A stretch of DNA of 64,000 bases from Botryllus schlosseri. Taxonomy: Eukaryota. The position numbers and the translations under genes were made by a program. The DNA is taken from NCBI GenBank assembly GCA_051294905.1, contig CM119371.1:1614001-1678000 (forward strand), read 5' to 3'. Below are positions 532-59,513 of the stretch, in pieces. Each line of letters starts with the position of its first letter. Positions within the stretch are counted from its first letter, which is position 1. Under the pieces are notes generated by a model that was not told the origin of the DNA, did not search any database, and saw nothing but the letters and a program-made list of their open reading frames with translations.

Positions 532-2633
532 CAGGGCTGTGGAGTCGGAGTCGGAGTCGGTGGAGTCGGAGTCGGAGTCGGGGTAATTTTCGCTTGATGG
601 AGTCGGAGTCGGAGTCGGAGTCGTGAAAACTTTAATAGCTGGAGTCGGAGTCGGAGTCGGAGTCGGTGGGAAATACTGACTGGAGTCGGAGTCGGAGTTT
701 GTTAGAATGACTATGATTTCGACTCCGACTCCGACTCCAACTTCTCTATCATGTAAACATTTGCTTTCGAAGAATTTTCAATATAATTTTTATGTACTAC
801 CAATCACTGTTATTATTAACCATACAGATCAGCTGCGGCCAGCCCGTGGCACGCAGGCCAAATTTGGCACACGAGAAGGTTAGGTGTGGCCTGCGAGGTA
901 ATTCTCGAAATTATTTATGACATCAGGTACAATTGCAAGGCCAACCAAAATTTGATTAGCATGACCGAGAAATTTGATTATGACTAAAACAACAGTTCTG
1001 AGGCATTGACGTATCCAGGGGTCAGCCACATTTATCCCAGATCTTCGTATATGACCATGACCATGAAGTAGAATATTTCATAGCAAATTTATTTGACTTG
1101 AAATTTTTCTCGGTACTTCGCATGATTCATTGTCACTAGATTTCTTGCATTCAGTACTTGAGCCCCCTTCTGAAAATTATAAGTACATATTCTTCACGGA
1201 ATTGAGTCTAACTATATTCGCAACTAGGAGATACGGCTTCGCTTGTGCACTCGCAGCGAGATCGTCGACAAAACATTTGCACTAAATGATAGAGGCATGT
1301 TCATTGTTCACTGATACCGTCGATTTTGCTATGTCTAAACGTCGAATAATCCTGTCCTTGCCAAATGAGCCCAGTGGTATACAGATGCGACCCCCAATGT
1401 ATGTTAGCGACATATTTATTGATATAGCTATAGCCTAATTCAGTCGTTATCTTGCAAAAAAAATTCGCGCTTCGCGCGACCAGGGCCTGATTGTGCACTG
1501 CACAGTTGGATGACATAATGTTATCAATTTTAGAGCGTAATAATATAAGTCTTGTTTGCAATGTTTCATAATTCGGTTCGCTCCTATCGACGACTAAAAA
1601 AAGGTTATCAACATTCCCGTTGCCCGCGCAATGGTTCGTAAATCTCAGGTGTCCCTTTCGCCGAAAAAGTTGCCCACCCCTGATAAAGATAAAAGACATT
1701 ACTTGCAAATTACAACTCAGTTGCAGAGGGGAAGAAAATTGTAAGATGCGTTTTCGCGATACAGTCAAAATTGATGCAATTTTTGGAATTATACCATGAT
1801 ACTGTGACAGAGAAAATGCATCGGCTGGTTTTGTAAAATTGTAACAATATGTAAATATGACCAAACGATGCTTCCCATTTGACAAAATTAAAAATATTTG
1901 TAGTGTAGCTTAGCTGTTTGGGTCGAACAAATGATTAAAAAAGACTGCAAGTCCCAATCCTTGAATACTTGATTAAGTACATGTAGACTAGACATAGCCA
2001 AGGTCTTTAACTACTTAACTAAATTCCACTTATGACCAATGTCTATTACTAGTAGTAAGAGTGTTTGTGCTTGTAATCAGGATAGTGTGTAATGACAAAA
2101 TTAGTAAGTTCAATTTCTTTATTAGTTGCTGAGTCATACACAGGAGCTACACTTGGATTTTTTATCTACATTATTATTATACAGGATTGGATATCTGCCA
2201 TATTTGAATGATTCATACATTTCAGGATATTAGAGAGTCCATGTTATAAAAACTTGAATAAGGAAGGATATTTAGCAAATCTTTATTTCATGTTAATTGC
2301 ATAGTGGATAATTCGAGCTGTGCCACAATGAAACAATTCAGCATGCCACAGTTGATCATATGTTTGCATATGTTTAATGGTTGTATGATAGTCATTCAAC
2401 CGACAATGTGGCATATAATTTTCGAGGTAAATTGGTAATAATGCTGGAGTCGGAGTCGGAGTCGGGAGTCGGAGTCGGTACGTTTAAAGACCCAGGAGTC
2501 GGAGTCGGAGTCGGAGTCGGTACGTTTGAAGACTCAGGAGTCGGAGTCGGAGTCGGAGTCGGTATATTGAAAATGTGTGGAGTCGGAGTCGGAGCCGGAG
2601 TCGGTGGTAAAATTTACCGACTCCACAGCCCTG
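532..2633. mobile_element. Non-autonomous hAT-type element with (GGAGTC)n subterminal arrays
   Basis: TIR cagggctgtggagtcgg / ccgactccacagccctg; perfect 8-bp TSD ggttcaag (524-531 and 2634-2641); GGAGTC hexamer arrays at both ends; a further orphan end at ~4115-4173. Confidence 0.92.
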
Positions 2634-2765
2634 GGTTCAAGTTTGTTTTTTTCTAATTAAAGGGTATTCTACGTAGTATGAATCATGAATGAAACATGAA
2701 TAGCTTGAGATTGTGGCTGAATACGTCGCTACAGTTGTCAAAAAGCACCTCTCTACCAAATCAGT

Positions 2766-3253
2766 CAGGCTTTTACCAGTAATTGTATTTTCGAGTCAAT
2801 CTGTGTATTGACTTGACTCGGATAGGACTTGAGTCATTACGCATGACTTGAATCAAGTCATATGACTTGAGACTCAGACGGGCAAGATCGACATTTCATT
2901 GAAATTTCAAAGAATAGTAAAGTGACCACACTATTGGGATTTCGTCTATGGGTACTGGTACCTAAAAATGCAACCAGAAACTGCTACAAGTGAGGAAAAT
3001 TAATGTATTAACCTGTGAACCATTCAATATCAACAAACTGGGTTATAATATGTGGGTTACCAAGACTTTAACTGGAAGCTGAGCCGTCAACACAATGACT
3101 TGGACTCGAGTCATAATGCCATGACACGGACTCCACCCTCTGATCTCTGACTTGGACTCGGTGTTGAGTTGAAAATGACTCGACTTGACTCGAGTCAAAA
3201 CTATGAAAATGAGATTAACTTGCTACTCGGAGCGTGACTAGGTTACAACCCTG
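2766..3253 (-). mobile_element. GACTCGAGTC-rich MITE (family A), degraded copy
   Basis: Ends in ggttacaaccctg; internal gactcgagtc/gacttgagtc motifs; collinear with the copies at 40337 and 62772. Confidence 0.8.
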
Positions 3254-4585
3254 ATTTGATATATTTAGCATAGAGTAATTTTAATCATAATGTAATTAGA
3301 ACATGCAATAAAGTAATTGTAATTGAATTGAATTAATGTAATTGATCCAACTCTGGAGGTAGCCCTATATTTAAATTAATACACAGTGTACTAAAGAAAA
3401 AATTTCCGTAGCATAAATCTGCTATTATTGATTATATTTATACGGAAAACATTTTTAGCATACTTCAAGCCTTTAAAATTGCGGACTTAGAGCCATATAT
3501 TAGAATTTCCTTCCGGACGCAACTTCAACCCGAACATGTCGGGGAAACTCCGGACGTATGGCAATACGAATGTATACCTCAATCCACAATCGCGGAAATA
3601 CACGTTCTACTGTTCGGGGTCATGTCCCATATTCGAAATAACTTGAAAATTTCAGATAATCATCCGTGCGCACTTTTTTCAACAAAAGCAATGTTATTTT
3701 GATGCAACGATGCGTTCAGAAAATATCCACACATAACTGTGATGATCTAAACCAGTGGTGTCAAAGAAAACAAATGTTGAGTAATATTCATATGCCAAAT
3801 TATACCCACTCTATAGAGTGGCAAAATGTGCGCAGAGTTCACAGGTTTATGTAAAATGTATTGCTAAGTAGTTCTTCATAGAGGTGAAAAGGCAATGCAA
3901 AACTTTTATATTCAGGTCACACGGAGAATAAAAAGTGACAAAAATATAGTTCTGATATCTGTTTCCGCAGCGCTATGTCAGTTTTGGGTCAAACGGTCCC
4001 TGGCACCCACATAAACCTGAAATGGGTTTGAATATTGTTGAACCAAGTTCCAACGTCACCGTTTATAGTTAAATCCATCTTATTCCTCACAGCGTATAGT
4101 CACTACAGTTTTCACGACTCCGACTCCATCCAGAGAAAATTAGCCAAATTCCGACTCCGACTTCACAGCCCTGCGATAATCCCGACTCAAATTATCCCAT
4201 GATCCATGTTATATCGACTTTATTTTGATTATAGACATGGCATACAAATAACGTAGGCAAACCACGATGAACAGATGAACACTAAACAGCCTTCAAAGTA
4301 AACGCAATTTATATACAGCCCATAGTTTCAGTACGCATTGAAATGTTGAATTACAATTTCAAAGTAACTTTTCGCCGTCCGTATATTTCCCCCGCGGCCC
4401 GCCAAATCGCAAGGTCTGCTCTAAGATAATCTACAAGCTTTGGGGAACCACTAATTTTCAGTCAGTCACTGCAACAAACCAACCACATTACACAATCAGC
4501 ACACATTTATTACATTACAAACATTCTGCGTCCGGTTAGTTGTGTTGTAGCTAGTTGCGGATTTTTAAAGGTCGTTAGTTCTCGT

Positions 4586-4994
4586 TAGTGTTGCATTTAA
4601 AACAAACAGTGTTTTAAAAAAACATGTCTAAAGCATGTTTCAAACAGTGTTGTTAGAAATAAAATTATGTAAATTTATGCCATAGGTGCGTAAATACTTT
4701 CCAAAAAACATTGTATGAGCCGAAGAACAATTACGACCCAATATAGCCGACGTATATCGATATTGGATGGTTGGAACTCAAGGAATAGGCGGTTCAACAG
4801 TAATATTACATATATTTCGTCAAAGAAACTATATTCATTTTATATTTTCAATTGTCGATGTCAATCTGTTATGACGTCACAATTGAATATTCGTGAAGTC
4901 GTGACTTGAATGAAAATAAAAAGCATGCTTTAAACATGGGCTTTGTTTATATCATGTTTGTTTTAAATTGATTTTTGTTTTAAATGCAACCCTA
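4586..4994. mobile_element. hAT-type MITE (TAGGGTTGCATTTAAA family)
   Basis: TIR tagtgttgcatttaaaa / ttttaaatgcaacccta; imperfect TSD gttctcgt/gttttagt; same ends as 18321-21606. Confidence 0.75.
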
Positions 4995-6166
4995 GTTTTA
5001 GTTATAGTTCTAGTGGTCGGTTTTGAAAGTGAATTTTTTTAAACTTCAAAAATGATTATATTGGTATCTTCTGTCGATGCTCATGAATGACCAGATTTTG
5101 AACATTTTTACTCTCAAAATCACACAATATGAACATTTATTGTTCGACAATAAAGTGGGAAATGAGAGGTAAGGCACAGGACGGGCCAAGCATCCTTTAT
5201 ATTAGCGCAATAATTGATTTTGAATAGCTCTGAATCGATAACTGATGTCAATCGAATTAAATTGTCACACTGATATCGAAAATCTAGATATTGATCGACT
5301 TCTCAATACTAAAAGTATTCGACGGTGACGTAACGTTGCGCTATACGCCTACAATTTAGCGGCGGTAGTAGAAAGGTACTTTTAGCAATCACGAACGTGG
5401 ATATCGCTATGGTACTGTTCATAAGTTGAATTTGTAAACGTGCATGTCACTTGCACGGCAGTTCATTTGTCGCAGCAGATCCAGACGAATGTAAAGGGGG
5501 TCATTTTGATTCACAAATGATTTACGACATTAAAGAAATTTCTGACTGCTCTTAAGATACTATATTTCATATAATTTGTTGGACAAACAACACGCACTTC
5601 CGCGTTTTTAATGTAATCAACCAGGGATGACAAACGCATTTCCACGCAAATCATGCATTACACGTGAGGATAGTTTTACTGGCAGCCACCCACAGTTCAA
5701 GTATGTATTTCCAAGCTTACAACAATCCGGGATAATAATCTCTGTGGCCGGAAAATCTGTAACTGATATAGTTTCATCAACTTTACTTGTCAATTCTCAA
5801 ATTTGTCGCCTGCTCTACAAGCCTACATTTTGACGTCAGTGCAGGCACACAATCTAACAATCACATCTTGGATGGCTAGTTTGTAATTCGGATTGGTCAA
5901 CGTGAACATCACCTCCAAATGAGTTCATTTCACTCTTGTGATTAGGACAACAATGATGATTTGAAAATTGCATCATCACACATTCACACAGGCCACGCCA
6001 TGACTGCTATCCTCTCAGATGAATCAACCTAAATAGCAGCCTTCAAAGCAATATGTCGGGAAAAGCGTATTAGCGGGGGATATTGATTGCCTGTATGTAT
6101 GACAGAAATTTTGATTTCGAGCCCCATTTAGATTACGGTATATTGATTGTTTGCTATACACTAGAA

Positions 6167-7550
6167 CAGTGGTTCTCAACCTTTTTGGCTTCGCGGACCC
6201 CTTTTGACCGTCACGGACGCGCGCGGACCCCCTAAAGTTTTAGCTCAATTTTAGCTCTATTATGGTGCAACCTTCATCTGTCTTGTGCAAATATGAACTG
6301 TAGGCTTGTGATAAACAGCAAAATAGTGATTTTTCTTGAAGATAACATCATACTATTTACGTAGAAATTAGTGGACTTTTATTATTTCAAAGCTAATTTT
6401 GCTGCTGTACTTCTTGAAGTACGTGGTCGTGTCTTGAAAATCCGCGTCTTCGTTTTGATATGAACGAGGAGTGCCGAAAACCATTTCCGCAAAGATAGAT
6501 GGAATCTAATGCAATATTTACGTATAACGCTTCCGACGATACTTTTGGTGTGATCGCAACATTTATGGCACCAAAATGAAGAAACACATATTTAATGAAC
6601 ATATCACGTCCAGCATCTAGCGCAGGGACGGGCAACATACGGACCGCGGGCCGGAATCGGCCCGTGACGGCATTTTGATCGACCCGCAGAGAGATTCTAC
6701 CGTCAAAGTGAAATCCTAATCTAAAAGTATAGACAAATATTATGCTCCAGAGCATGGATCCAAGTTTTCCAACCAGAGACTGTCATGAAACGACTTGTTC
6801 TGTTCGGGTTAAATATATATTTACGAGCAAACATTTTCGACCATGAACAATTGAACATTAACAAGACAAGGCTGCATACCAATATAACTCGTGATATGAA
6901 TTTCAGGGTTGGAGCGTAATGCTTTGATAGCAACGAAACACTCCTTGTACATCAAAAAATCAGCCTTGTCGATAGGGCATCCGCAATAAGAATGCGCCAC
7001 ATGTGATAGCCGAGCTTTAAGAGCAGGTATATCATTGTCCGATTATTGACGAGTGTCAGCCGAAAATATTCGGGTTCATTTCAGTATGAATATACTATTC
7101 AATTTTATATTAAAGCTCTGTACCTCCATTTTTTTTATTTCAAACGACTGTTCACTAACTTGATGAGACTGACAACTTCAAATCGAGAAGGATTCGTAGA
7201 CATTACGAAGTCACCCTGATTGACGCTACTATCTCCATATTTTTATTTTTTCCACAAACCCGTACAAAACGTCTCTAAAGAGCAATATGTTTGTATGAGC
7301 AGGTTATTGGAAAATTGGCAATGAAAATGAGTTTCCACACTACCATAGTCCATGTCAGACGATTAATACGATGATATGAGTCATGAGGTTTTAGCAGTTG
7401 TGGTGCGAAACTGCCTCATGCTTTCTCAAATTGAAAAATAAAATAAAAATCAGGTTATCAACCATTTTAAAAATTTAGAGGTCTCGCGGACCCCCTGAAA
7501 TTGCTTCGCGGACCCCTAGGGGTCCGCGGACCCCCGGTTGAGAACCACTG
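6167..7550. mobile_element. Non-autonomous hAT (Charlie/Buster-like) element
   Basis: TIR cagtggttctcaac / gttgagaaccactg; perfect TSD cactagaa; gcggacccc subterminal motifs; a second hAT-like 5' end nested at ~6623. Confidence 0.92.
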
Positions 7551-8227
7551 CACTAGAATTATACTGCATAGAATTCTAAAATGTGAAGAATTGTCTCGCG
7601 GCACCCTTGCGGGACGTGAATGGCACACTAATTTGGCGCAGAACACCGTTTGAAAACCACTGCCTAGCCGTTCCTTTACTTTCAATCGACACAAATAGAC
7701 CGCCTAAATTCGCTGTTACAATTGTTATGCCAAGTGGGCCAACGACTTGGATCGCAAATTCACTGCTGCTTGCGTCGTTACTAGTTTCTTCAGATTTCGA
7801 AGGCACTCCGGTTATCAGGTTATGAGATGTTCTCCTACTGGTGAACTACCTGTAATCGACGGAATTTGGTACCATCTTTGGCCGTGACAGTTGCGATTCC
7901 GATGTGCTTGGTATAAGGCACACATCAACACTGATTCCAGATCACATAGCGATTTTTTTACAAGTGCGAGTTAATGAAACAACACTATTTTCAAAACAAA
8001 TTATACTCTGCTGACAAATTCATATGGCCGCATATTAAATGTGGAACTGGACAGATTTTCTCGCAACTATTTGTCGGTGAATGCTTGGCTCTCATATATT
8101 GTTTCTGTAAGAGACCAAATCAGAAGACGAAAATTATTGTGGTAAGCCGGGCCACAACTTATTCTGCGGCGTAAATTCTGGTTCTAAATTTCGGGCAGTA
8201 AAGGATGTCTTTACTCGAGATGCTAAG

Positions 8228-8422
8228 CAATATTTCCTTTAAGCTGCGCACGTGCGCAATTGCGCAGTGCTGACCCGTCCGCTGAGCACAGAAAATCTAA
8301 GCTACCCACAAAAAATCCGAAGTTATGACCTTTTTTCAGTCGTTACGCACTGCTGTCCAACGACCGCGCAGTGAGATGGCGAGTGTGCACCGACTAGTTA
8401 AAAAAAATTAGAGGGAACATTG
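8228..8422. mobile_element. Short MITE (CAATGTTCCCTCTAA family)
   Basis: Degenerate TIR caatatttcctttaa / ttagagggaacattg; TSD atgctaag/ctgctaag (7/8); related end at ~23794. Confidence 0.7.
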
Positions 8423-9274
8423 CTGCTAAGTGAATGTGTAAATAGCATAATAATATTTTCATATCAATTACTGAGTATATGACTGTTTATTCACAACAAA
8501 ACTCACTGACCATGTAAGAATGCTAACAAACAAGGTTGAAACTGAACAATACAATAATCGGAAAGCAATGCCGAAGATGGAAGTTGTAATCAGCATTCAC
8601 CCAAGTTTATTAATCAAAGTTTATGTAGACTTATGGCGAAGGTTACGGAAGCCAGCTCATCCAGGTTAATTATGATCGTCTAATAAAAAACTTTTAATAT
8701 TGGCTAATAAACTTTGATATTGAATTTCCCAAAAAATGAACATTTGCATAATATCTACTCTGAAGATTTAATCAATCCAATGTGACGTCCACCAGCGTCA
8801 TATATTGCGCACAATTAGCCAGTTTTCATCGCCCGGCAATTAAATTAGGTCAGTCGTCATACAGGCGTTTGTTGATTGAATCTGAATTAGTCTTTTTGGG
8901 ATAACAGCTGATGTCTATGGCAAACGACTATTTGGAATAGCTAATCTTCGAAGTAATACATTAAGCCATCGCTGTCGGGTTAGTGATATCGATGAAAATA
9001 CTCCTGATATACTCATATATCAAGTATATTCATAGTTCACTGAGCAGGTTGCTACTATATCGTTCCCATCGAATACGATTTTGAAAATTGCTATGGTTCC
9101 CGCAATAGGCCTAACCAACGCGAAATTATGACCCCGAATGGATTGCTAAGGAAAGATGTGAATATTGCACCATATCATATCTGAAGAGGGGAGGCTTCAA
9201 AATGAGATAAATTCCAGAATAACACATCATATAGTTTTCCTACGAAATGAATCATTTGAAAAAGTATGACTCAC

Positions 9275-9684
9275 TCGTATTCGATTTTCCAGACACCTTG
9301 CAATGATGCTCAAAAGCTCGTCGTCGATACTGCAGAAACTTAAATTCAAAGAACGAAGGCTTTGATTCCTTGCTGCGAGCGATCCAACGATATGAGCTTC
9401 ATCGCGATTCAACGAGATATAAGATGCGTCGATGACGGAAAGATCTTTCATAAGATTGTCGTCGCCCGATTCGTAGATTGCTGTATAGAGTTCCATGCGA
9501 ACGTATCTGTCTCCGTCTCCAGTCTTATCGTGAAGTTGTGAACGGATCGATTGATATAAAGCTTGTTGCTTCTGTTTTTGATCCGAGACTGTCAAGCAAT
9601 ACACAATGTCATTGTCGTTGTCGTTGTACCGGTATTCGTAATGTTTGCCTAATCGTTTACGTAACAATTGAATAATTCACGCGA
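9275..9684 (-). pseudogene. NLR exon: helical region plus first RI-like leucine-rich repeat; contains an in-frame TGA
   Basis: Acceptor catag| and donor |gtgagt; translation includes LRSLNLSFCSIDDELLSIIARCL (LxxLxLxxCxI); in-frame TGA at 9679-9677 just after the predicted acceptor. Confidence 0.7.
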
Positions 9685-9799
9685 CTATGATGAGACAGGG
9701 TTCAAATGGAGTCATTGAACTTTAATGTCTAGTTCACAATAACAAGATCATTTCATGCGCATCAATATCGCATGTTCGACTAAGATCGGCTCCAGAATT

Positions 9800-9982
9800 C
9801 ATACCTAAGTGTTGGAGGTTTATTTAGGCTCACCCTCCGGAAGCTATATTTTTCAAAAAGCTTAGAAGTGGGCAGTGCTACAAGTCGGCGGATGCGAAAT
9901 CAAAAATGCAAAAAATCGGCCTGGTGTAAATGACACCTTTAGCCGACAGACACCATAAATACCCGAAACAAACAAACAAACA
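9800..9982 (+). mobile_element. SINE-like repeat, family S1 (3' part)
   Basis: Shared core aagtcggc...ggcctggtgtaaatgac...acaccat with 28655-28872 and 43190-43392; (aaac)n tail. Confidence 0.65.
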
Positions 9983-10101
9983 AGGTCACATAGTGATCAT
10001 CTATGAGCCCTGGTAGCGCTCACGATAAATAATCTGCGAACTTATGCAGATTTTAGATATATAAGTTTTATTTAGCCAACTGAATGTAAAGACTTATTTA
10101 C

Positions 10102-10149
10102 CAGCTTTGCATGAATTTAAGATCTTTCGACTATTTCACCCCTTCGATT
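10102..10149 (-). pseudogene. Putative 48-nt NLR micro-exon (ESKG*NSRKILNSCKA)
   Basis: ttgtcag| acceptor, |gtaaat donor; phase 1-1 compatible with the flanking exons; carries an in-frame TGA. Confidence 0.4.
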
Positions 10150-10245
10150 CTGACAATACCATCAAAGTCATGATAAACCATAAGCGACCCATAATAATCA
10201 GTCGGTGCTGTGGCAGAATAGCCCCGGAAAACCATGATTACTCAC

Positions 10246-11754
10246 CGCTGTGAAGATCGTTATTAGATTTCATGTAAACGATGCCTGTAACGAATCTTCG
10301 AACCACGGACCATCGTTTCTCATGTAGATGTTGGCCATCAAAGCGAATGAACATTTCGAGCTCCATTTCCGAGATAAAACTAGCTGCCAGAAATTCCTGC
10401 ATGCTTTGATGACAGAAGAAGAATGTGAAGTCGCCTTCCATCAAGTGACGGCTGAGGATGTTGTTGCCAGGCACTTTCGTCATCAAATCCTGTACTTCGT
10501 CCGCGGAAACTCCAAACTGATCCAAATCTGCTTTGTAGAATACGACTCGTCCCTCTTTCATGCCTTCAAAAGCCATTTCCTTCAATTTGTTGATAATCGA
10601 GAGGATTTGCTTACGGTTTCGCATATTTTCCACACTCTGTAAGACTAACAGGATCCTGCTGTACAGTTCTGTCACGGTAGACGGAGGAGGTCTATCTGGA
10701 TCAATTCCCATCACCACTGCTACCAAAATCAGGAAAACCGGAACCGATACAAGTTGTATTAATCGCGGTGACATGATTTCAATCTTTTCCCAGAGACGCT
10801 GCCCGTTCTCACAGAGCAGAAAAGTAAACAGTTTATAAGCGTCTTGCAATGTGAGACCGGTAAGTGTGATAATATCTTGCGGACGTGCCTCCGCCGGTAA
10901 CTCGGAGACTTTGAATTCACGTGACGCCACGATGATTTTGACATGGCGAAGGATTCTGCGTGATAGGATGTTGTACATGATGGTCGACATACTTGCTTTT
11001 TCAAACGACCTCATATTTCGTATGGTAGACTCCTCAAAGTCCCACTTTACTTGATCAAGCCCGTCAAAAATTATAATTGCTTTGGATTGATTCTCCAGCA
11101 GCCATTTGAAAGATTCATCCTCTTCATACTCAGTTGCAAACAGACCGCCGAATAGAAATTTAGATGCTTTTATGGAGTTCTCTTCTTTCATGTTCTTCAA
11201 TTCGACGTAATGTATCATTTTTCGCTTCGGTTCGGAAAAGATTCCGAGAGCCCTTCGGGCAACTCTATGAAATATATTGGATATCCTGAACGGAACCGCT
11301 TCGTCCTTTTCCTTCGCGGAGGGAATTTCGAGCGCTTTCCGTGCAATTCTACGCACAAGAGTAGTTTTGCCCGATCCTGCAGAGGCGACAATTGAGGTGT
11401 AACCAACTTTATTGTCATGAGGTAATTTCTCGGACTTTGACAGCCATTCCATTATCTCTTCCATTGTTATCGGTTTACCGTCATTTTCGGATTTACTGTA
11501 AAACCCGACTTCCTCTATCAACTGACTTTTAAAAGCTTCCCTTCTAGATTCAAGAACAGGTTTATCATTTGAAGATTTTTGTTCGCGAAGACGGCCTTTG
11601 TAGTATTCATCAGCATTAAACTTTTGCATCTGCGAGAAAACTTCGAAGTCAGGTTCGTGAGGAAATTCATTCTTGAAATCTTCGCGAATTCCATTTGCCG
11701 TTTCTTGTCGAGTATGGTCGTTTATAACCTTTATCAATTTCCAGTAATCTACGC
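10246..11754 (-). CDS. NACHT-domain (STAND NTPase) exon of an NLR-family protein
   Basis: Open 1509-nt exon; Walker A SIVASAGSGKTT, Walker B AIIIFDGLDQ, sensor-1 KIIVASRE, VPVFL motif, winged-helix FFFCHQSMQEFLAA; acceptor ttttttctgcag-like (tttttctgcag|) and donor |gtgagt, phase 1-1. Confidence 0.93.
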
Positions 11755-11977
11755 CTGCAGAAAAATAAAATTATTGAAACTTTTATCAAGTATTGCGCAA
11801 AATTTGAAGGAGTAATTAAAAAAAAACATGCTATAAAACTATTTATGGTGTGGTTCTCTTTGTTAGCAATTCTTATCAGTTCAATACACCACAAAATTGC
11901 GATACAATGAAAAGATAGGAAGATGTCGAAACCACATTGAGTAGTCTTTGGAGTCAGACAACCACCATGGCCTAGGC

Positions 11978-12786
11978 CAGGGTGGACAACCTTTTTGGCT
12001 TAAGGGCCACATAAGATTTACGAAGCATTGTGCGCGCCACTTGTACGTTGATGTCCTTTTAGTCATCCGATAATAGCGGGCCGGAATAGGTAATGGTAAA
12101 ATGGACAAAAATAAAAACAACAAAATCGATAACACTTATGTCACAAAAACTCTCTACACATGTCCGAGCCGCGCGAAGCGCGAATTTTTTCAATGGTCAA
12201 TAAAAGAATGTTAGTTGCATATATTTTGCTGGGTTCATTTTACCAGGACATGATTAATCGGCGGTTGGACATATCAATATCGAAGATTTCAGTGAAAGTT
12301 GCGTCTATCACTTTGTGCAATGATTTCATCGCTGAAGATCTTTCCGCGCGTGCAGACGCCAAGTCGCATGTCGGACCATACATTCTCGCATAATTGCCGA
12401 TATAGTTACACTTAATTCCGTAAATTAGGCGTATTTTTGATTTCCGTGAGAAGGTAACACTACTTAAAGCAATAAATCGCACGCAGTGCTGGAAAATATT
12501 ACCGGTAAGTCAAATTAATTTTATAAATCGTAAATATTCCCCTTTATGGTCATATACGGAGATCTACGAAAATGTTGATGCCCCTGGCTACGCCAATACG
12601 TTGGAACTGATATTTTAGTCATGAATGTCCCAATGTCCGTGGTCAGGCTAATCATATTTTCGGCTGCTCTTGCAAGTTCACAATAAATTACCTGGCTAAT
12701 TTATTTTTTGATATTATAAGTAATTTCAAGAATTGCCTTGCGGGCCACTCAAAACCTTCTCGCGGGTCACGGGTTGGCCGGCCCTG
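11978..12786. mobile_element. hAT-type MITE in NLR intron
   Basis: Ends cagggtggacaacc / ggttggccggccctg; TSD gcctaggc/gcctagcg (6/8). Confidence 0.7.
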
Positions 12787-13647
12787 GCCTAGCGATGTAA
12801 AGAGGAGGCATGTAAACTGAATGAGAAGTAAAAGTAGTACAGAAAAAAAAGCAAGCGAAAAAATGGAGTGGCATTTCACTGAAAACGAGATCGATAGATA
12901 GTCAGTAACAATATCAGTATCAGTTCTGCTCGATTCGCTCAACAAAGAGCTATGTGATGGATTAGCTGCATCCTAATGATATCTATGGCACAATGGCTTG
13001 CAAGCAAGAAGTTCAAAAACCACATCCAAAGACGACAGTGCCTGATCTCTCTCTATATATATATTATATCGCTTGATTTATTCATTTTCGCTTCAATCTG
13101 ACGTCCTCCACTTCGGACGCTCAAGCGAGACCGCTGACAATAACACTATCATTGGGTTACCTTTTCAGGCTATTGATTTTGTTAAAGTCAGGAACGCTGC
13201 GTTTTGCTGCAATGCCATTTGCGGATCTAGGGGGTTTCAGGTGCGTGGTACTTGACTTGTTTTATAGACATGCATGGATTTTCGCGGAAAATTACTTTCG
13301 CGTGTTGCGTTACTTTCTTGCTGCGTACCGGCAAAACATGTAAGTTTCAGCGGTCTCGCCAGGCCGTTCGTGAAATAAGAAAGTATCATATTTGACAGCT
13401 CTACGCGCATGAGGAGACAGCGAAATGCTGTCATGTAGTGTCAAACCCAAAGAACATGAAATGGTATTAATGATTGATTGAATAAGGAAGAAAGAAGCTA
13501 AAAAAACAGACACCCTGCAAATCTTAAACTTTTCGAGTATCTAATACCCTAATATATCAAAAAATTATAAATGAAAATCTTTACTGCAACTTTCCAAATG
13601 CAATAAAAACTTTCCATAGTAATAATTACACTTTCTTATGTAGAGAG

Positions 13648-14043
13648 CAGGGTTCTCAAAGGCTTGGCCATGACCCACTGGTGGGCCACATGAGTAATGT
13701 AAGGTACAGTGTTTTTATCGACAGCTATTACTTGATGTCTTGAAAATGACTCATGAATTTTGCTCCCAGTCAATCGGCATTACTGATACGCCGGGTCAAG
13801 TCATGTCAAGTCATTTTAGCAACGTGACTCGAGTCAAATCAAATCATACGAAAAAAGGTGACTAGAGTCTGACTTGAGTCAAGTTATGACTCGAGTACTC
13901 CCAACACTGGAAATAGGCATATCGGCAGCGGCTATTTCCACACATTGAACAGGGCTATGACTCTAGGTAGGATAAGAGGTGGGCCATGGAACATTTTGAA
14001 ACCCGAAAATGGGCCACGGTCAAAAGAAGGCCAAGAATCCCCG
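13648..14043. mobile_element. Degraded hAT-type MITE containing a GACTCGAGTC family-B fragment (~13730-13909)
   Basis: cagggttctcaaag start, gggcca subterminal motifs; internal gactcgagtc array ending ccaacactg. Confidence 0.5.
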
Positions 14044-14454
14044 ATATAGAGGTTACCAGGGCTGAAACAACAGGGCTGACAAAAATATAGATTACTCGGC
14101 AGTAAAGTGTAAAGAAATCCTGCAAATGGTATTATTTTTAATTAGGACAGTGTCATCAAACCTAATCTTGTTGCGCCTACAACAGTATGACGGCCATCTT
14201 CAACGGGCCAGAGATCAGGTGTTGCTCAATGTAACCTAAAACAATTACAAGGTTTCTTCCATATTTAATCCTGGTAACACATCCGTACTATTGCGCAAAA
14301 TTCTCTTATAGCTATCTTCTCACCCACCTCTATACTCCAATGAATCTTCGCTGTATACTGACTGCTATTACAAATATCTACCTATCCCTGTAGTAGATCA
14401 GTCTTCCTTACCGCGACATGATTCCTGCTGCATGATTTGGTAAGAATACTAAGC

Positions 14455-14602
14455 GACTGTCCGCCGTGTAGTTGTCGTTGTTGTTACCGACATGGTCGAG
14501 TTATCATATTGTGACGTTCCGCCATGACAGCCGGCTTAACCTAAGGTTACGGAAGGGTAGTAGCAGTAGGTCGACAAGGACGTTCATTCATTGCGTAACA
14601 AT
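14455..14602 (+). repeat. Dispersed SINE-like repeat, family S2 (second copy ~62252-62385)
   Basis: Shared tgtcgttgttgtt-ccg...tcgagttat...ttaacct-aggt-acgg...cattcattgcgta; A-rich tail in the 62 kb copy. Confidence 0.55.
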
Positions 14603-15645
14603 TGGTCTGTAGATCAATGAAAGCATTGAAGGGGGCGCGAAGAAGCGGTCAAGTAAAAAAAATTCGCGCTTGGCGTGTTCATGCGTGATTCTCTATATAC
14701 AGACCGAATTTCATATTTTTAATTTTTTCATAACCCTCCATGCCATCAAACAATCTGTTAAGGTTGCTAGCATCCCGGTTGGATTTTGTGATATGACTAT
14801 AAGGGGGGCGCGAAATTTTTCACAATCAAAGAGGGGGGCGTGTCTAAAAAAGGTTGATCGAGAACCACTGCTTTAGAGGATTGGCAATCCGAGACTGGAT
14901 AAACTACTCCATGTACAAAGTAGCATTTGCGGGGGTTTTCTCTTCGCGATTTCCGCTGATAGCCACAATTTATGTACTTTTGAGACAATCTATTGATGAA
15001 GATTGTTGGGAATACAGATGGTGTCCAGTATAGCTTCACTTATTAATACATGCATTGAAGATGAAGAGTAATAGAAGATCAAGGTGAGGATCTTCGTACA
15101 TGAAAAACTGTCTCAGATTTCTACATGTCGTATAATCACTGATGGCGTGTTGAATGGGAGATATTCACGCCCATGGTCAGATCAGTAGATGGACAAAAGT
15201 TCAATCTAATCATACTTTATAACTATGATTGCGCACCGTATGGATCGAGCCTTATGGCGAAAACAGGATTACGTGATCTCGAAACAACGGTAAATTATGA
15301 CTTCTTTAGGGTTACGAAGTCCCATGTCGAAGTGCCCATTTAGAAATGTCTCCTACTAAACTGTCGCTTGTAATTATACGACATGTTGAAGTGTCGGGCA
15401 ATCTGCACCTGAATGAAAAGCAGTTATATACTCCCATTGTTCATGTGAAATACGCAGGTGGGTTGTGGACATAATTGCGCCTAATTTATGCATCAACATA
15501 CTGATACCACAGAAGTCATAACCTCATGACTTCTAGGCCTGAAGAAAATTTCTTAACATATTTTGCAATTCATTGAAAAGGTGCTTTCAGCAGACCATTC
15601 TCCTAAATATGCACACCGTATTGAATTAAAGAGCATTATACTCAC

Positions 15646-15792
15646 TTTTAATCCCGGAAGGTGTTTCTCCTTCAACAATTTTAATATTGTAGACGATCTT
15701 GTTTGCATTGATTTGATCTCTGGCCACGACGTTAACAGAGCTCTTTGTGAACTTCAGATTGACATTTTCTCCTTCGGCCAAAGTTGCGGATC
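15646..15792 (-). CDS. NLR exon 2 (GSATLAEGENVNLKFTKSSVNVVARDQINANKIVYNIKIVEGETPSGIK)
   Basis: Strong acceptor tttttttcttag|, donor |gtgagt; 147 nt, open, phase 1-1 matching exon 1 and the NACHT exon. Confidence 0.75.
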
Positions 15793-16017
15793 CTAAGAAA
15801 AAAACATGATTATTTTTCTGCGTGCCAGGTTCCATAGATAGCCTTATTAGAAAACATTATGAATTCTTTTATTTTCTTCGATATCATTCGGAATATTATT
15901 TGCGCAACGAACAAAATGTACGGTATTTGAATACCTTGTCAAATGTTTTAGATGGATAATATAATCAAGTATTTCAAGTAGTCTGAGCTCAAATACAACA
16001 GAGATTGGGCTACTCAC

Positions 16018-16093
16018 CGCTTATTCCGGGTGATATTGATGTAGGCTTGACATCAGCGACATCAGAATTGTTATATTTACCCCCTTCTGCCAT
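16018..16093 (-). CDS. NLR first coding exon (MAEGGKYNNSDVADVKPTSISPGIS)
   Basis: ACCATGG Kozak context, donor |gtgagt in phase 1; an upstream acceptor (attttcag| near 16137) implies a further 5' UTR exon. Confidence 0.75.
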
Positions 16094-16164
16094 GGTCTTG
16101 ATAACGCGGTACTAATTAGCTAGCTTATATGACAATACTGAAAATATATAAGAACATTCTATGT

Positions 16165-16491
16165 TAGGGGTCCCACACTTCCTCTTTTAAGAGGATTTGT
16201 CCTCTTTTTTTACTTTTTGGAAAGTGTCCTCGGAGCATGCCCCCATGGACTCTTTTTTTTAGAATTTTGTTTCAATATATGCCAAAATTTGACTGAGATA
16301 GTTCAGTATTGAAGTAACGAACGCTCCGGCGGCTATTTCGAGAGGTGAGCCGGAAAGTTGGCCTTATTTTAGTCAACCGAACACGAATTGACAAAAAATT
16401 ACCATTTTTACAGGATTTCATCCGGTATTGCAAGTCTGAAAATGTTGAAAATGTGTCCTCTTTTCATATTTCCAAAAATATGGTAACCCTA
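16165..16491. mobile_element. MITE (TAGGGTTACCA-type ends)
   Basis: Ends taggggtccca / tggtaacccta; TSD ttctatgt/ttctatat (7/8); tcctc subterminal repeats. Confidence 0.7.
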
Positions 16492-32978: not shown

Positions 32979-33689
32979 GTTTCAATCATGAGTGACAGCA
33001 TCTCAAAATCTATTGGGTGGCCTACAAGTTCTAAATACCATTAAGAGTGTATTGTCTCACATACTTTTTCAGGCCTCACTGAGTATGATATTATTGGCTG
33101 GTACGCCAATTTGTACAAGCTACCAGTCTAGTTAGTCGCCGGTTAAGTAACAACTGTTTTTTTGACTAGTTCTAGTTAGACATTTTGAAAAGTGTGTGGT
33201 TTTAGTTCAGTAGTTCATTAAATAGTTGCCAGCATCTAGAAAACACGCGTCATCATTTGGCATAAATCTTCATGTAAACCTCAGAGACCTCATTACTACA
33301 GAGACTGACGTAGCCGGGTTGTTTGGGGTTGAAAGCCTTCCCATTATACGCAGAAACCTTATATTAGAAGTGACAATTCTGCATCCTATATTACTCATCT
33401 TGTTTGCGATTCAGTAATTTGAGTCATCAGTGCTGCCAATTATCGACAATCGACAGTGCATAGCGGCATGCGATCTAGTTGTTAGTTGCAGATCTTCTAT
33501 GGTCGAAGTACACGTCACCGATCTCGAACACCCAGCAGTTTGTAAAAGTCTGTTGGTATATATTATTTTAGTAAGTGGTGGTGTGTTTTATCCTCATTGG
33601 CCGAATGATTAGGATCAAGTGTTGTAAAGGTAAATGAGATCTGAAAATGAAACTGAAAACAAGTAAAGTTTAATTCAAAGTCACAAAAT

Positions 33690-33950
33690 GTCCGGTTTAC
33701 TTGAAGCTTTACTTGCTTTCCAATGTAAATCAACTCTGGGCTTGGGCATTTTGATCGTTCCAAAGATACCAGAACTGTTATTAAAACTCTTCGAAGCTTT
33801 TAAAGCGTTCTCATGCTTGGTGAAGTTTATGAATGCGTATCCGAGCGGTTTTCCGATTCCATCTTTGCTGAAAGTCTTCAGATCTCGCATCTCTTGAGAA
33901 TCCGTGACAACTACGCCGCGTCGATGTTTGAATTGGGACAGGAGAAGCTC
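33690..33950 (-). pseudogene. RBM28: RBM28-like RRM4 exon (copy 1), frameshifted near its end
   Basis: Acceptor gttttcag|; ELLL...MRDLK....GKPLGYAFINFTKHENALKA...NN...IFG matches RBM28 MRDLK...SLGYAFAEFQEHEHALKAL...NNNPEIFG; the following VEFSLE-like motif is out of frame. Confidence 0.8.
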
Positions 33951-34616
33951 CTGAAAACATAACGAAATCAGTTTATTGAAGTAGGCCTACTCTTCATAGA
34001 GTGAATGAGTTAGTCACACAAAACTGCTACAAACAAAATATAGAACAGCGATTCTCTACCTTATCAGCCTGTGTACTGGTAAATTTCCCAAAATTAAGGT
34101 CAACACAGAATGTAATGACGACAACAGCATGCAATTTAAAACCAAGAACATGAATTTCAATTAAATGAGAAATTTTATACTGTCCGTTTGATATCATACC
34201 TGTTATACCAGGTCTCATTAAAGATTCTAGAAGAAGGGATAAAACCAACAACTCACTTTTGACCGTTTGGTGTATTTTGAAAAAAATGCGACTAAATGCT
34301 TACCAGATGTACCATACTGGTGAACATTGCTAAATAGCATTTACGAATTTCGTCAAATTTTGGAAAGTCTTTATGACTCATGACTGGTCTCACACGAGTT
34401 GTAGGCTTAAAAAAGGTTAAGAACCACTGCTCTAGTCATTTTTGTATACTGACTTGACGATAACACTTCATAGAACACACACATATTTCAGCACCGAAGT
34501 CGTGTCCAGTAATTCTCAGTTAACCGATAGACTTGTGTCATAGCTATGGAGCAAAATTACATGACAGATCGAATACTCTCCAGTGATGCTACTTTTTCCA
34601 GGTTTTTATGCAGGAA

Positions 34617-58200: not shown

Positions 58201-58904
58201 TCAACATGTGAATAATCAGTTATTGCGACAAGTTGAAATATCGTACCAAAGTTGCGAGTGGGAACAGTACGCGATTGTGTAAGTGTGAAGACAGCGAGAT
58301 GGTGATCGTGTGAATAAATTAATCTGAAACGCAGTGGAGTGAAAGTTTACCCAACCTGTCTGGCAATCCTACTTCAAATCGCGATATGACAAAGTAGGTT
58401 GAAATATTCCCATTCAACTCATCGCATTGCAACTCGATCGTGTTATCTGCAAGCGGTTGTCAAGTTGGAAATGTTTACAACAATGGGCGATATTTCATTG
58501 ATTGACTCTATTGTGTGTAGTAACACATTAAAATATCGCGATAGTATTTACTGAAACTCTATTTGATAAACGGAGAACTCAGTCGTGAATAGAGTTGTAA
58601 GTTTCAAGGATTGTTTCAAAGTATGATCTTGAAATGTGACTGGATCAAAACTGGTAGTCATGTTTGTCAAAGTCCAAATATTTCATTCTGGATTATTTGG
58701 ATTTACTTTTAGTACATCCCGCGAATGGATTTAAAGTTGGCAAATTACCAAAATGATTGAATATTATCGGGTTAGAAATAGTTGGTATTGATTCTATAAG
58801 TGTTAAAACAGCGGCGTGGAATGTGTGAATGATCCGATGTGGGTGAATGTTGGCGTCAGTAATATTCAGGTTACGTTCGATTCGACAGATCGCGTTAATA
58901 GGAT

Positions 58905-59513
58905 TTGTCAAAGGATTTGAGTTGGGTCGAATCAATACATTCAAATACGATTCAACTTGATTTGTGTAGTGAGTTACATTTCAAAAGAGGTGGCGTTAGC
59001 CAATATCTCAAAGGTATATTCATCGATGGCAATAACGAAGAGATATCTTTCACGTGTTTCAATCGTGATTTGTTCGGGAACATTGAGAAAGCATTAACCA
59101 AACGAAAAAAACTCATGGTCAAATCCGGTTGGGTTCAAATTGATAAATTTACTGGAAAACCCGCTGTATTACTTGGTCGGGCTTCGTCAGTAACTCTACA
59201 TGGAAAATCGAGACATACGACTGAAGAATATCCATTATTGACCTGTGAATCGGTATACGGAAATAAAGATGAATACGTCTCGATCGCCGCTACTTGTGTT
59301 TCTCGAGAGGAGAAGATGGTCAATTCTGGTGCCGGAAAGGAGTTGAAATTATACAGTTTTATATTGAAGGATGATACTGGCGAGGTGGTTTTGGATCAAT
59401 GGAACAAAGCCTCGCTCGTACCCGGGAAGAAATATCAACTCACTCGTGTTAAAAACTGTGTCGGCAGCTTGAAAATCGATTCGTTAACTAGACTTGTTGA
59501 ATTGAAAGAATAG
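58905..59513 (+). CDS. RPA70-like tandem OB-fold ssDNA-binding protein (probably transposon-borne)
   Basis: Open 202-codon frame with two OB-like units: YLKGIFID...ISFTCF and YVSIAATCVS...LKLYSFILKDDTGEVVLDQW....LVPGKKYQLTRV; no N-terminal ATG (possible acceptor taatag| at ~58901). Confidence 0.7.
   Translation: MSKDLSWVESIHSNTIQLDLCSELHFKRGGVSQYLKGIFIDGNNEEISFTCFNRDLFGNIEKALTKRKKLMVKSGWVQIDKFTGKPAVLLGRASSVTLHGKSRHTTEEYPLLTCESVYGNKDEYVSIAATCVSREEKMVNSGAGKELKLYSFILKDDTGEVVLDQWNKASLVPGKKYQLTRVKNCVGSLKIDSLTRLVELKE

Follow-up and report, generated by a model that had tools for sequence, protein, structure and literature searches.

Short amyloid motifs attached to NLR receptors (nucleotide-binding, leucine-rich-repeat proteins) are known only in fungi and multicellular bacteria, and the heads through which animal NLRs signal are taken to be death folds or of BIR type, as far as the available parts of two publications describe them (10.1101/2020.01.06.895854; PMC13506858). 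In the fungal and bacterial systems (HET-s/HRAM, sigma, PP and BASS1-10), a short N-terminal motif replaces the folded effector domain of a NACHT or NB-ARC receptor; these motifs are strand-prone, rich in Asn, Gln, Gly, Val and Ile, and recur on a second protein class in the same genome (10.1101/2020.01.06.895854, available part). Here, we analyse an NLR gene on the minus strand of a 64,000-nucleotide (nt) stretch of the Botryllus schlosseri genome (assembly GCA_051294905.1, contig CM119371.1, positions 1,614,001 to 1,678,000; this whole stretch is called the window, and coordinates are counted from its first letter). The gene opens with two small head exons (15646-16093), here called the cassette, which are confirmed as a real feature in both coordinates and structure. 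With the fungal and bacterial motifs, the cassette shares the position on the receptor, the strand-prone composition and the recurrence on a second protein class. It differs from them in giving no sequence or profile match to the HET-s, sigma and PP models, in having as its second carrier an NHL propeller with the motif at the N-terminus, not a HeLo/Bell-type or enzymatic effector, and in that this carrier is not encoded beside the receptor; the host here is a chordate, and the cassette is known from sequence alone.

We propose that the cassette is a lineage-specific homotypic adaptor head, in the role that CARD, PYD, DD or DED have in the NLRs of other animals, and we give this reading a probability of roughly 0.45. 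The main reason is that the head takes the place of a death fold in two unrelated architectures, the NLRs and a group of NHL genes; for the second of these, the position is judged from amphioxus NHL relatives that bear Death or DED domains there.

Head exons and their junction with the NACHT exon

At this locus, an ascidian-like chordate has an intact NLR gene of the NACHT type, headed by a lineage-specific two-exon cassette. Exon 1 (16093-16018, minus strand, 76 nt) carries the start codon and, as read from the sequence, encodes 25 codons plus one base (MAEGGKYNNSDVADVKPTSISPGIS) before a phase-1 gtgagt donor. Its ATG at 16093 is the first one past an in-frame TAG located 24 nt upstream, and it has an A at -3 and a G at +4. 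Intron 1 (15793-16017, minus strand, GT..AG) measures 225 nt, a length found also in the close paralogues L002, L003 and L008. Exon 2 (15792-15646, minus strand, 147 nt) is a symmetric phase 1-1 cassette exon between a ttttttcttag acceptor and a gtgagt donor, and its peptide, ENVNLKFTKSSVNVVARDQINANKIVYNIKIV, agrees exactly with the one quoted in an earlier note on this DNA. Codons 1-37 of exon 2 (15680-15790, minus strand) form the conserved motif core, SATLAEGENVNLKFTKSSVNVVARDQINANKIVYNIK, in which hydrophobic and polar residues alternate over four short stretches, and codons 38-48 (15647-15679, minus strand) form a variable Gly/Glu/Pro/Ser linker tail, on which the ratio of nonsynonymous to synonymous substitution rates (dN/dS) indicates weak constraint.

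Exon 3 (10246-11754, minus strand, 503 codons, phase 1-1, donor at 10245) encodes a pre-NACHT region, the NACHT NTPase and a winged helix. It begins at 11754 behind ctgcag, where the split codon A+GC gives Ser and continues into a 510-residue NACHT frame, so that the head ahead of the NACHT exon is 75 residues long. This frame matches Pfam NACHT with an E-value (E) of 5.2e-15 (56.1 bits, cut-off 26.7) and NOD2_WH at 3.6e-06, and a GSGKTT P-loop is found in it; both NACHT and winged helix, the pair by which an NLR is recognised, are therefore present.

To follow the splicing, contigs of three sequencing runs (X1-X3, whose RNA label is a guess) and one raw RNA run (X19) were aligned to positions 8000-16400. 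In X1, one contig (depth 6.2) has a joint 11751->15645 with two other letters in between, which equals the junction 15646|11754 if one G>A is allowed at 11752. In X3, one contig (depth 3.1) has a joint 15793->16022, which fits exon 1-exon 2 in a copy lacking one AGC codon, so that this contig probably derives from an allele or a paralogue. All of X1, X2 and X3 cover the exon 2 bin, and the unique intron bins at 15025-15586 are at zero in all runs. The raw run X19 gave 34 partly fitting reads, located at repeats, and no joint. According to the earlier note, exons 1 and 2 splice phase-compatibly onto the NACHT exon and give an N-terminus of about 75 residues without a recognisable CARD, PYD, DD or DED. 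The in-frame joins, with one contig for each junction, bear out the first part; the second part agrees with the X1 contig, which links exon 2 straight to the NACHT exon, and with a search in which exon 2 of the window matched zero Pfam families at E<=1.

Downstream, a further exon (9275-9510, minus strand) encodes the post-NACHT or first LRR-like part of the protein; it was placed by a contig joint and by tblastn, and its 3' boundary is uncertain. The joint, 9511->10246 in an X2 contig, is at most 1 nt off the in-frame AG junction 10246|9510, and tblastn with Styela NLRs reaches over this exon (9595-9245). LRR_6 matches there weakly (E 0.0011, 19.3 bits, under the cut-off of 23.4). Intron 2 (11755-15645, minus strand, 3891 nt, GT..AG) contains several high-copy repeats, and no Pfam domain was found in its open reading frames (ORFs) of at least 85 residues. 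Contig depth summed over the three runs is very high (about 10,000 at most, with many loose ends) at 8000-8561, 9686-9966, 11653-11933, 12496-12776, 13620-13900, 14744-15024 and 16149-16400; these bins correspond to high-copy repeats within and around the introns of the gene.

Distribution and conservation of the cassette

Searched in six frames, the 495.5-Mb assembly yields 129 matches to the exon 2 peptide, and 80 of these reach E<1e-3, a signal that lies far above chance. A pattern search for AG...GT[AG]AG recovered a phase 1-1 exon at 28 of 37 loci (the pattern failed at the other 9), and each of the 28 copies so resolved is an internal exon, of phase 1-1, within an N-terminal cassette. 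Matching exon 1 candidates (MAEGG/MAERG...SPGxS) lie upstream of 11 of these 28 paralogous copies, NHL genes included.

To ask what the cassette heads, we paired the 80 significant copies with same-strand NACHT places drawn from two lists, the best 84 of 220 and the best 94 of 224 candidates scored, which merge into 122 distinct places. A NACHT exon on the same strand was found within 10 kb downstream of 33 copies and at 10-25 kb downstream of 17; NHL repeat exons follow 4 copies, and nothing was found downstream of the remaining 26, one of which has a NACHT 1.8 kb away by tblastn. Read from the other side, 45 of the 122 distinct NACHT places have a cassette copy upstream. This NLR family is thus usually headed by the cassette, which at least 50 genes carry.

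At one locus (L017; G000:C1:11762249-11765377, minus strand), one NACHT exon is preceded by a tandem pair of cassette exons, spaced by 1.1 kb and each AG..GT and phase 1-1; the second unit is divergent (…GDEIHGNKVINKYY…). The four copies followed by NHL repeats belong to four tandem genes at C8:3.86-4.02 Mb (L037, L039 and L040 among the loci), each with exon 1, exon 2, a linker exon and NHL repeats, and without NACHT. Phase-1 acceptors are present in L037 and L039, and the propeller is of the six-blade type (Pfam NHL down to 9.6e-19). The cassette of these genes has a 3-residue deletion and is nearest, at 72-82% identity, to one subgroup of NLR heads on chromosome 1. The tandem copies of L017 and the same head on four NHL genes sustain the earlier claim that exon 2 is a symmetric, shuffleable phase 1-1 exon. 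In L039, an LTR-type (long terminal repeat) retroelement (2097-6255, plus strand) with RVT_1, RNase H, integrase zinc-binding and integrase core matches sits in the intron that separates cassette from NHL exons.

The animal relatives of the propeller in this cluster are mostly TRIM71-like. Three amphioxus NHL relatives carry an N-terminal Death domain (P0115, P0118) or DED plus TRADD-N (P0119), and the four cassette-NHL genes look like the tunicate counterpart of these Death/DED-NHL proteins. Compared with the death-fold adaptors, the cassette occupies the same position, at the head of NACHT-LRR receptors and of NHL propellers. The difference is in the module itself: a death fold packs six helices into a bundle of about 90 residues, whereas the cassette head has about 75 residues with a 37-residue strand-prone core, no predicted helices and no Pfam death-fold match.

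The earlier note had asked whether effectors carry the same motif, and here the answer was negative: no MLKL/HeLo-like, gasdermin, caspase or kinase carrier was found among the cassette copies surveyed, of which 26 of 80 are without an assigned architecture, and the only non-NLR carriers found are the four NHL genes, on another chromosome than the window, which itself contains no second cassette copy. Same-strand ORFs downstream of the orphan copies (34 large, and 150 of 181 small) gave only transposon-type Pfam matches apart from NHL. Fragments of P-element-type helix-turn-helix and ZSWIM3_N type were observed downstream of orphan cassettes (L031:3184-3405 and L046:745-1044), as transposon remains near NLR heads. 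Within the window, ORFs of at least 85 residues (70 of 73 by Pfam, the other three lying within the span of the NACHT exon) revealed no neighbouring effector and only an RRM fragment. This fragment, a short frame at 33684-33986 (minus strand), matches RRM_1 weakly (E 1.7e-4) and probably belongs, as an exon, to an adjacent gene for an RNA-binding protein; at 58902-59513 (plus strand), a 203-residue open frame gives a faint OB-fold hint (tRNA_anti-codon, E 0.17) and may be a transposon-borne single-strand-binding module.

Alignment of 27 exon 2 copies showed that A2, L4, N9 and Q26 are invariant and that 9 more columns are at least 90% conserved. In the column profile, an alternation of hydrophobic residues with Asn, Lys, Thr and Ser marks four blocks (9-14, 19-22, 26-29 and 32-36). 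Asn and Val make up 31% of the core, in which Pro is nearly absent, while Pro reaches 42-58% in tail columns 44-45. Over the 20 ungapped copies, the core (codons 1-37) has a dN/dS of 0.22 and the tail (codons 38-48) a ratio of means of 0.80 with a median of 0.98; nucleotide identity is 0.77 in exon 2 versus 0.49 and 0.39 in the 60 nt of flanking intron on each side. From these two contrasts we infer that codons 1-37 are a motif constrained at the protein level and that the remainder is a linker. The invariant columns and the low core dN/dS also settle in its favour the earlier question of whether the motif is conserved among paralogues.

These data bear on the simplest alternative, namely that the cassette has no function and consists of promoter-proximal exons copied along with gene duplications, the NHL genes having captured them together with the promoter. 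Such a history would suit the movement of exon 1, the short intron and exon 2 as a block in both NLR and NHL genes, and the 26 of 80 copies lacking a downstream NACHT or NHL may be orphan remnants. However, the constraint on the core against a tail near 1, the divergence of the flanking introns, and the splice sites and phase kept at 28 of 37 loci all argue for selection on the peptide, as does a motif that is 51-65% identical among copies whose NACHT exons share only 53-60%. We therefore disfavour this explanation and hold it to be very improbable.

Known folds, motif families and ascidian relatives

When the 27 members were searched against Pfam at E<=10 (HMMER filters drop most matches above about 0.1), none matched a death-fold, RHIM, HET-s, sigma or PP model, and only scattered chance-level matches were obtained. 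The signature G-phi-Q-phi-G is given for RHIM, PP and BASS3 in the available part of the source (10.1101/2020.01.06.895854). The centre of the cassette motif (columns 24-28) instead reads G (74%) or R, D (89%), Q (100%), I (81%) and N (78%), the window copy having R where most have G, and the RHIM core tetrad (I/V)-Q-(I/V)-G is absent from it. The resemblance to known amyloid motifs that the earlier note had suggested was not supported by these comparisons. The cassette is nevertheless similar in several respects to RHIM and cRHIM (RIPK1/RIPK3/ZBP1/TRIF; PGRP/IMD of insects), which are homotypic motifs of animal innate immunity that span about 20-40 residues and set an invariant Gln beside a branched hydrophobic residue, with an Asn nearby; it differs in lacking their core and in the zero of 27 Pfam RHIM matches. 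RHIMs are not known on NLR N-termini, according to the parts available of two publications (10.1101/2020.01.06.895854; PMC13506858).

A second comparison is with the bacterial effector-associated domains (EADs, e.g., EAD10), which, in the available part of the source, are small non-enzymatic modules placed on STAND-type NTPases and on separate proteins and are thought to couple homotypically (PMC7159879), a logic that the proposed adaptor head would share. EAD10 (PF19954) itself was rejected as a relative, as only 2 of 27 members matched it, at 12.6-13.1 bits against a cut-off of 24.1 (E 0.10-0.14), which is chance level over 27 scans. Two other candidates were set aside: the best profile match among PDB sequences, the MthK RCK domain (E 0.1), was taken as chance, and the best ESM Atlas score, 0.87, came from unnamed bacterial clusters and is under the lead level of 0.9.

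A search of 1.84 billion representatives with the cassette profile brought up 13 proteins (E<=1e-3), 11 of them with the motif. All 11 are ORFs of 40-124 residues that read through splice sites, that is, unspliced genomic calls. P0013, a bacterial repeat protein (GGDQxHVxQVVYTF, E 7.4e-4), and P0011 were judged unrelated repeats, and no bacterial or fungal relatives were found in this search. By its sequence distribution, the cassette appears restricted to a narrow clade.

AlphaFold2 run on the 27-sequence alignment gave a predicted local distance difference test score (pLDDT) of 54.3, a predicted template-modelling score (pTM) of 0.15 and no secondary structure, so the motif is predicted to be without a fold on its own. 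This would suit a docking or regulatory peptide, whose strands bind a folded partner by beta-augmentation, the partner being an adaptor, a protein of ubiquitin or SUMO type, or the receptor's own NACHT or LRR part in auto-inhibition; the NHL genes would then have taken up this handle as a route to that partner. Consistent with this, the motif is short and flanked by linkers, its conserved polar and charged residues (E8, N9, D25, Q26, K31) suit specific recognition, and one nearly identical handle on many receptors fits one common partner. On the other hand, 37 constrained residues in four blocks are long for a linear docking motif, no partner is known, and both the duplication of the unit within a gene and the death-fold position in the amphioxus NHL proteins fit a self-associating module better. 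We regard docking, for the NLRs and for the NHL genes alike, as somewhat unlikely.

Strict amyloid signalling, the idea put forward in the earlier note and a narrower form of the adaptor reading, makes use of the same predicted disorder in another way: the motif would fold into a cross-beta or beta-solenoid rung and template the same fold downstream, as in HET-s/NWD2, BASS and RHIM. The position at the NLR N-terminus, the length of about 37 residues with flexible linkers on both sides and the share of Asn and Val speak for it, as do the presence of the motif on two protein classes of one genome and the occurrence of both one- and two-unit heads. In addition, the signalling amyloids of animals are RHIM and cRHIM only, as the available part of a 2026 review has it, so that an NLR-attached one would fill a gap (PMC13506858). 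Against this stand the failure to match any known model, the divergent centre and the lack of bacterial or fungal relatives described above. No copy was seen C-terminally or on a pore-forming, lipase, TIR, caspase or kinase protein. Dozens of receptors with nearly one motif would leave little pair specificity, and there are conserved charges within the core.

The nearest relatives of the NACHT exon are 13 Styela clava NLRs, one Clavelina protein and one assembly protein, at 27-34% identity (32-34% for the Styela clava NLRs). The Styela clava and Clavelina NLRs (P0014-P0028) share the pre-NACHT region, and their heads are also without death folds, consisting of strand-like units rich in N-x-S/T and in N/Q/V/I, some of which begin with MAEQ or MADQ...EGANVNI. 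Unlike the cassette, these heads either form long arrays in tandem, reaching about 280 residues in P0024, or are short, unrelated tails. In P0017, P0019 and P0024 (Styela clava), the N-terminal arrays are N-x-S/T-rich with a repeat of about 65-70 residues; a description of such a tandem-array head was not found in the literature searched, as far as its available parts extend. P0028 (Clavelina lepadiformis, 1280 residues) is an NLR-like protein with a short, N/V/I-rich tail at its N-terminus, NACHT at 137-293 and a C-terminal caspase domain at 1081-1213.

A single-sequence AlphaFold2 model of one Styela array is all-beta, with 27 strands and no helix (best pLDDT 64, pTM 0.58), and such long N-terminal arrays on distant NLRs would agree with strand stacking. 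The model is weak, however, as the other four had pLDDT 24-40, and Foldseek found nothing at E<=0.001 for it; curli CsgA and FapC, its top rows (template-modelling score at most 0.15, E about 0.02), were not used as evidence. Moreover, a common origin of the cassette and the Styela heads is unproven: comparing the cassette by hhalign with NLR heads from Styela, Clavelina and Logan, and with an alignment of 7 terminal units of Styela, yielded non-significant E-values of 0.18-0.42. Taken with the arguments given above, we consider strict amyloid signalling unlikely.

The cassette as an adaptor head

We return to the homotypic adaptor. The head consists of a short acidic Gly/Ser/Pro leader, the 37-residue strand-prone Asn/Val-rich motif and a freely evolving linker. 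In the proposed mechanism, it would be unstructured alone until oligomerisation of the NACHT domains gathers several copies, whose four strand segments would then pair between chains. Other proteins that bear the head, both further NLRs of the family and the four propeller proteins of the cassette-NHL genes, may in turn be recruited by strand pairing. What the data show is the structure of the gene, its splicing, the size of the family, selection on the motif, its reuse on NHL genes and the absence of a known fold; that the head self-associates, acts by induced proximity and recruits partners is inferred in this scheme, and an amyloid or beta-solenoid stack is one possible form of the pairing.

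Several observations weigh against this proposal. Each junction of the head is seen in a single contig from runs whose RNA label is a guess, and two of the contigs differ slightly from the window and may stem from alleles or paralogues. The models of the cassette-NHL genes are predicted from order, strand and phase, and an NHL propeller is not an obvious executioner domain. Among the copies with neither NACHT nor NHL found downstream (26 of 80), 18 loci were examined, and 14 of these had only transposon-type Pfam matches within 9 kb. Finally, the charges conserved inside the motif (E8, K13, K16, D25, K31) are unusual for a simple hydrophobic zipper.

The most far-reaching version of the finding is that a chordate replaced the death-fold head of a large NLR family by a single-rung amyloid-like beta motif on a shuffleable exon, signalling by templated beta-stacking and co-assembling with the NHL proteins. 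We find this version doubtful. If true, it would represent the first case of amyloid signalling coupled to an NLR in any animal, evolved independently of RHIM, HET-s and BASS; in the literature searched, to the extent of its available parts, no ascidian or other animal NLR with an amyloid-type head was found.

The cassette family allows a concrete test for non-death-fold, possibly amyloid-like, adaptors of animal NLRs, given that the peptide is small enough for synthesis and the carriers are defined. The adaptor reading predicts that the heads would assemble with themselves and with one another. Even if the head is not amyloid, the cassette would represent an undescribed adaptor module and a clean case of exon shuffling in immune genes.

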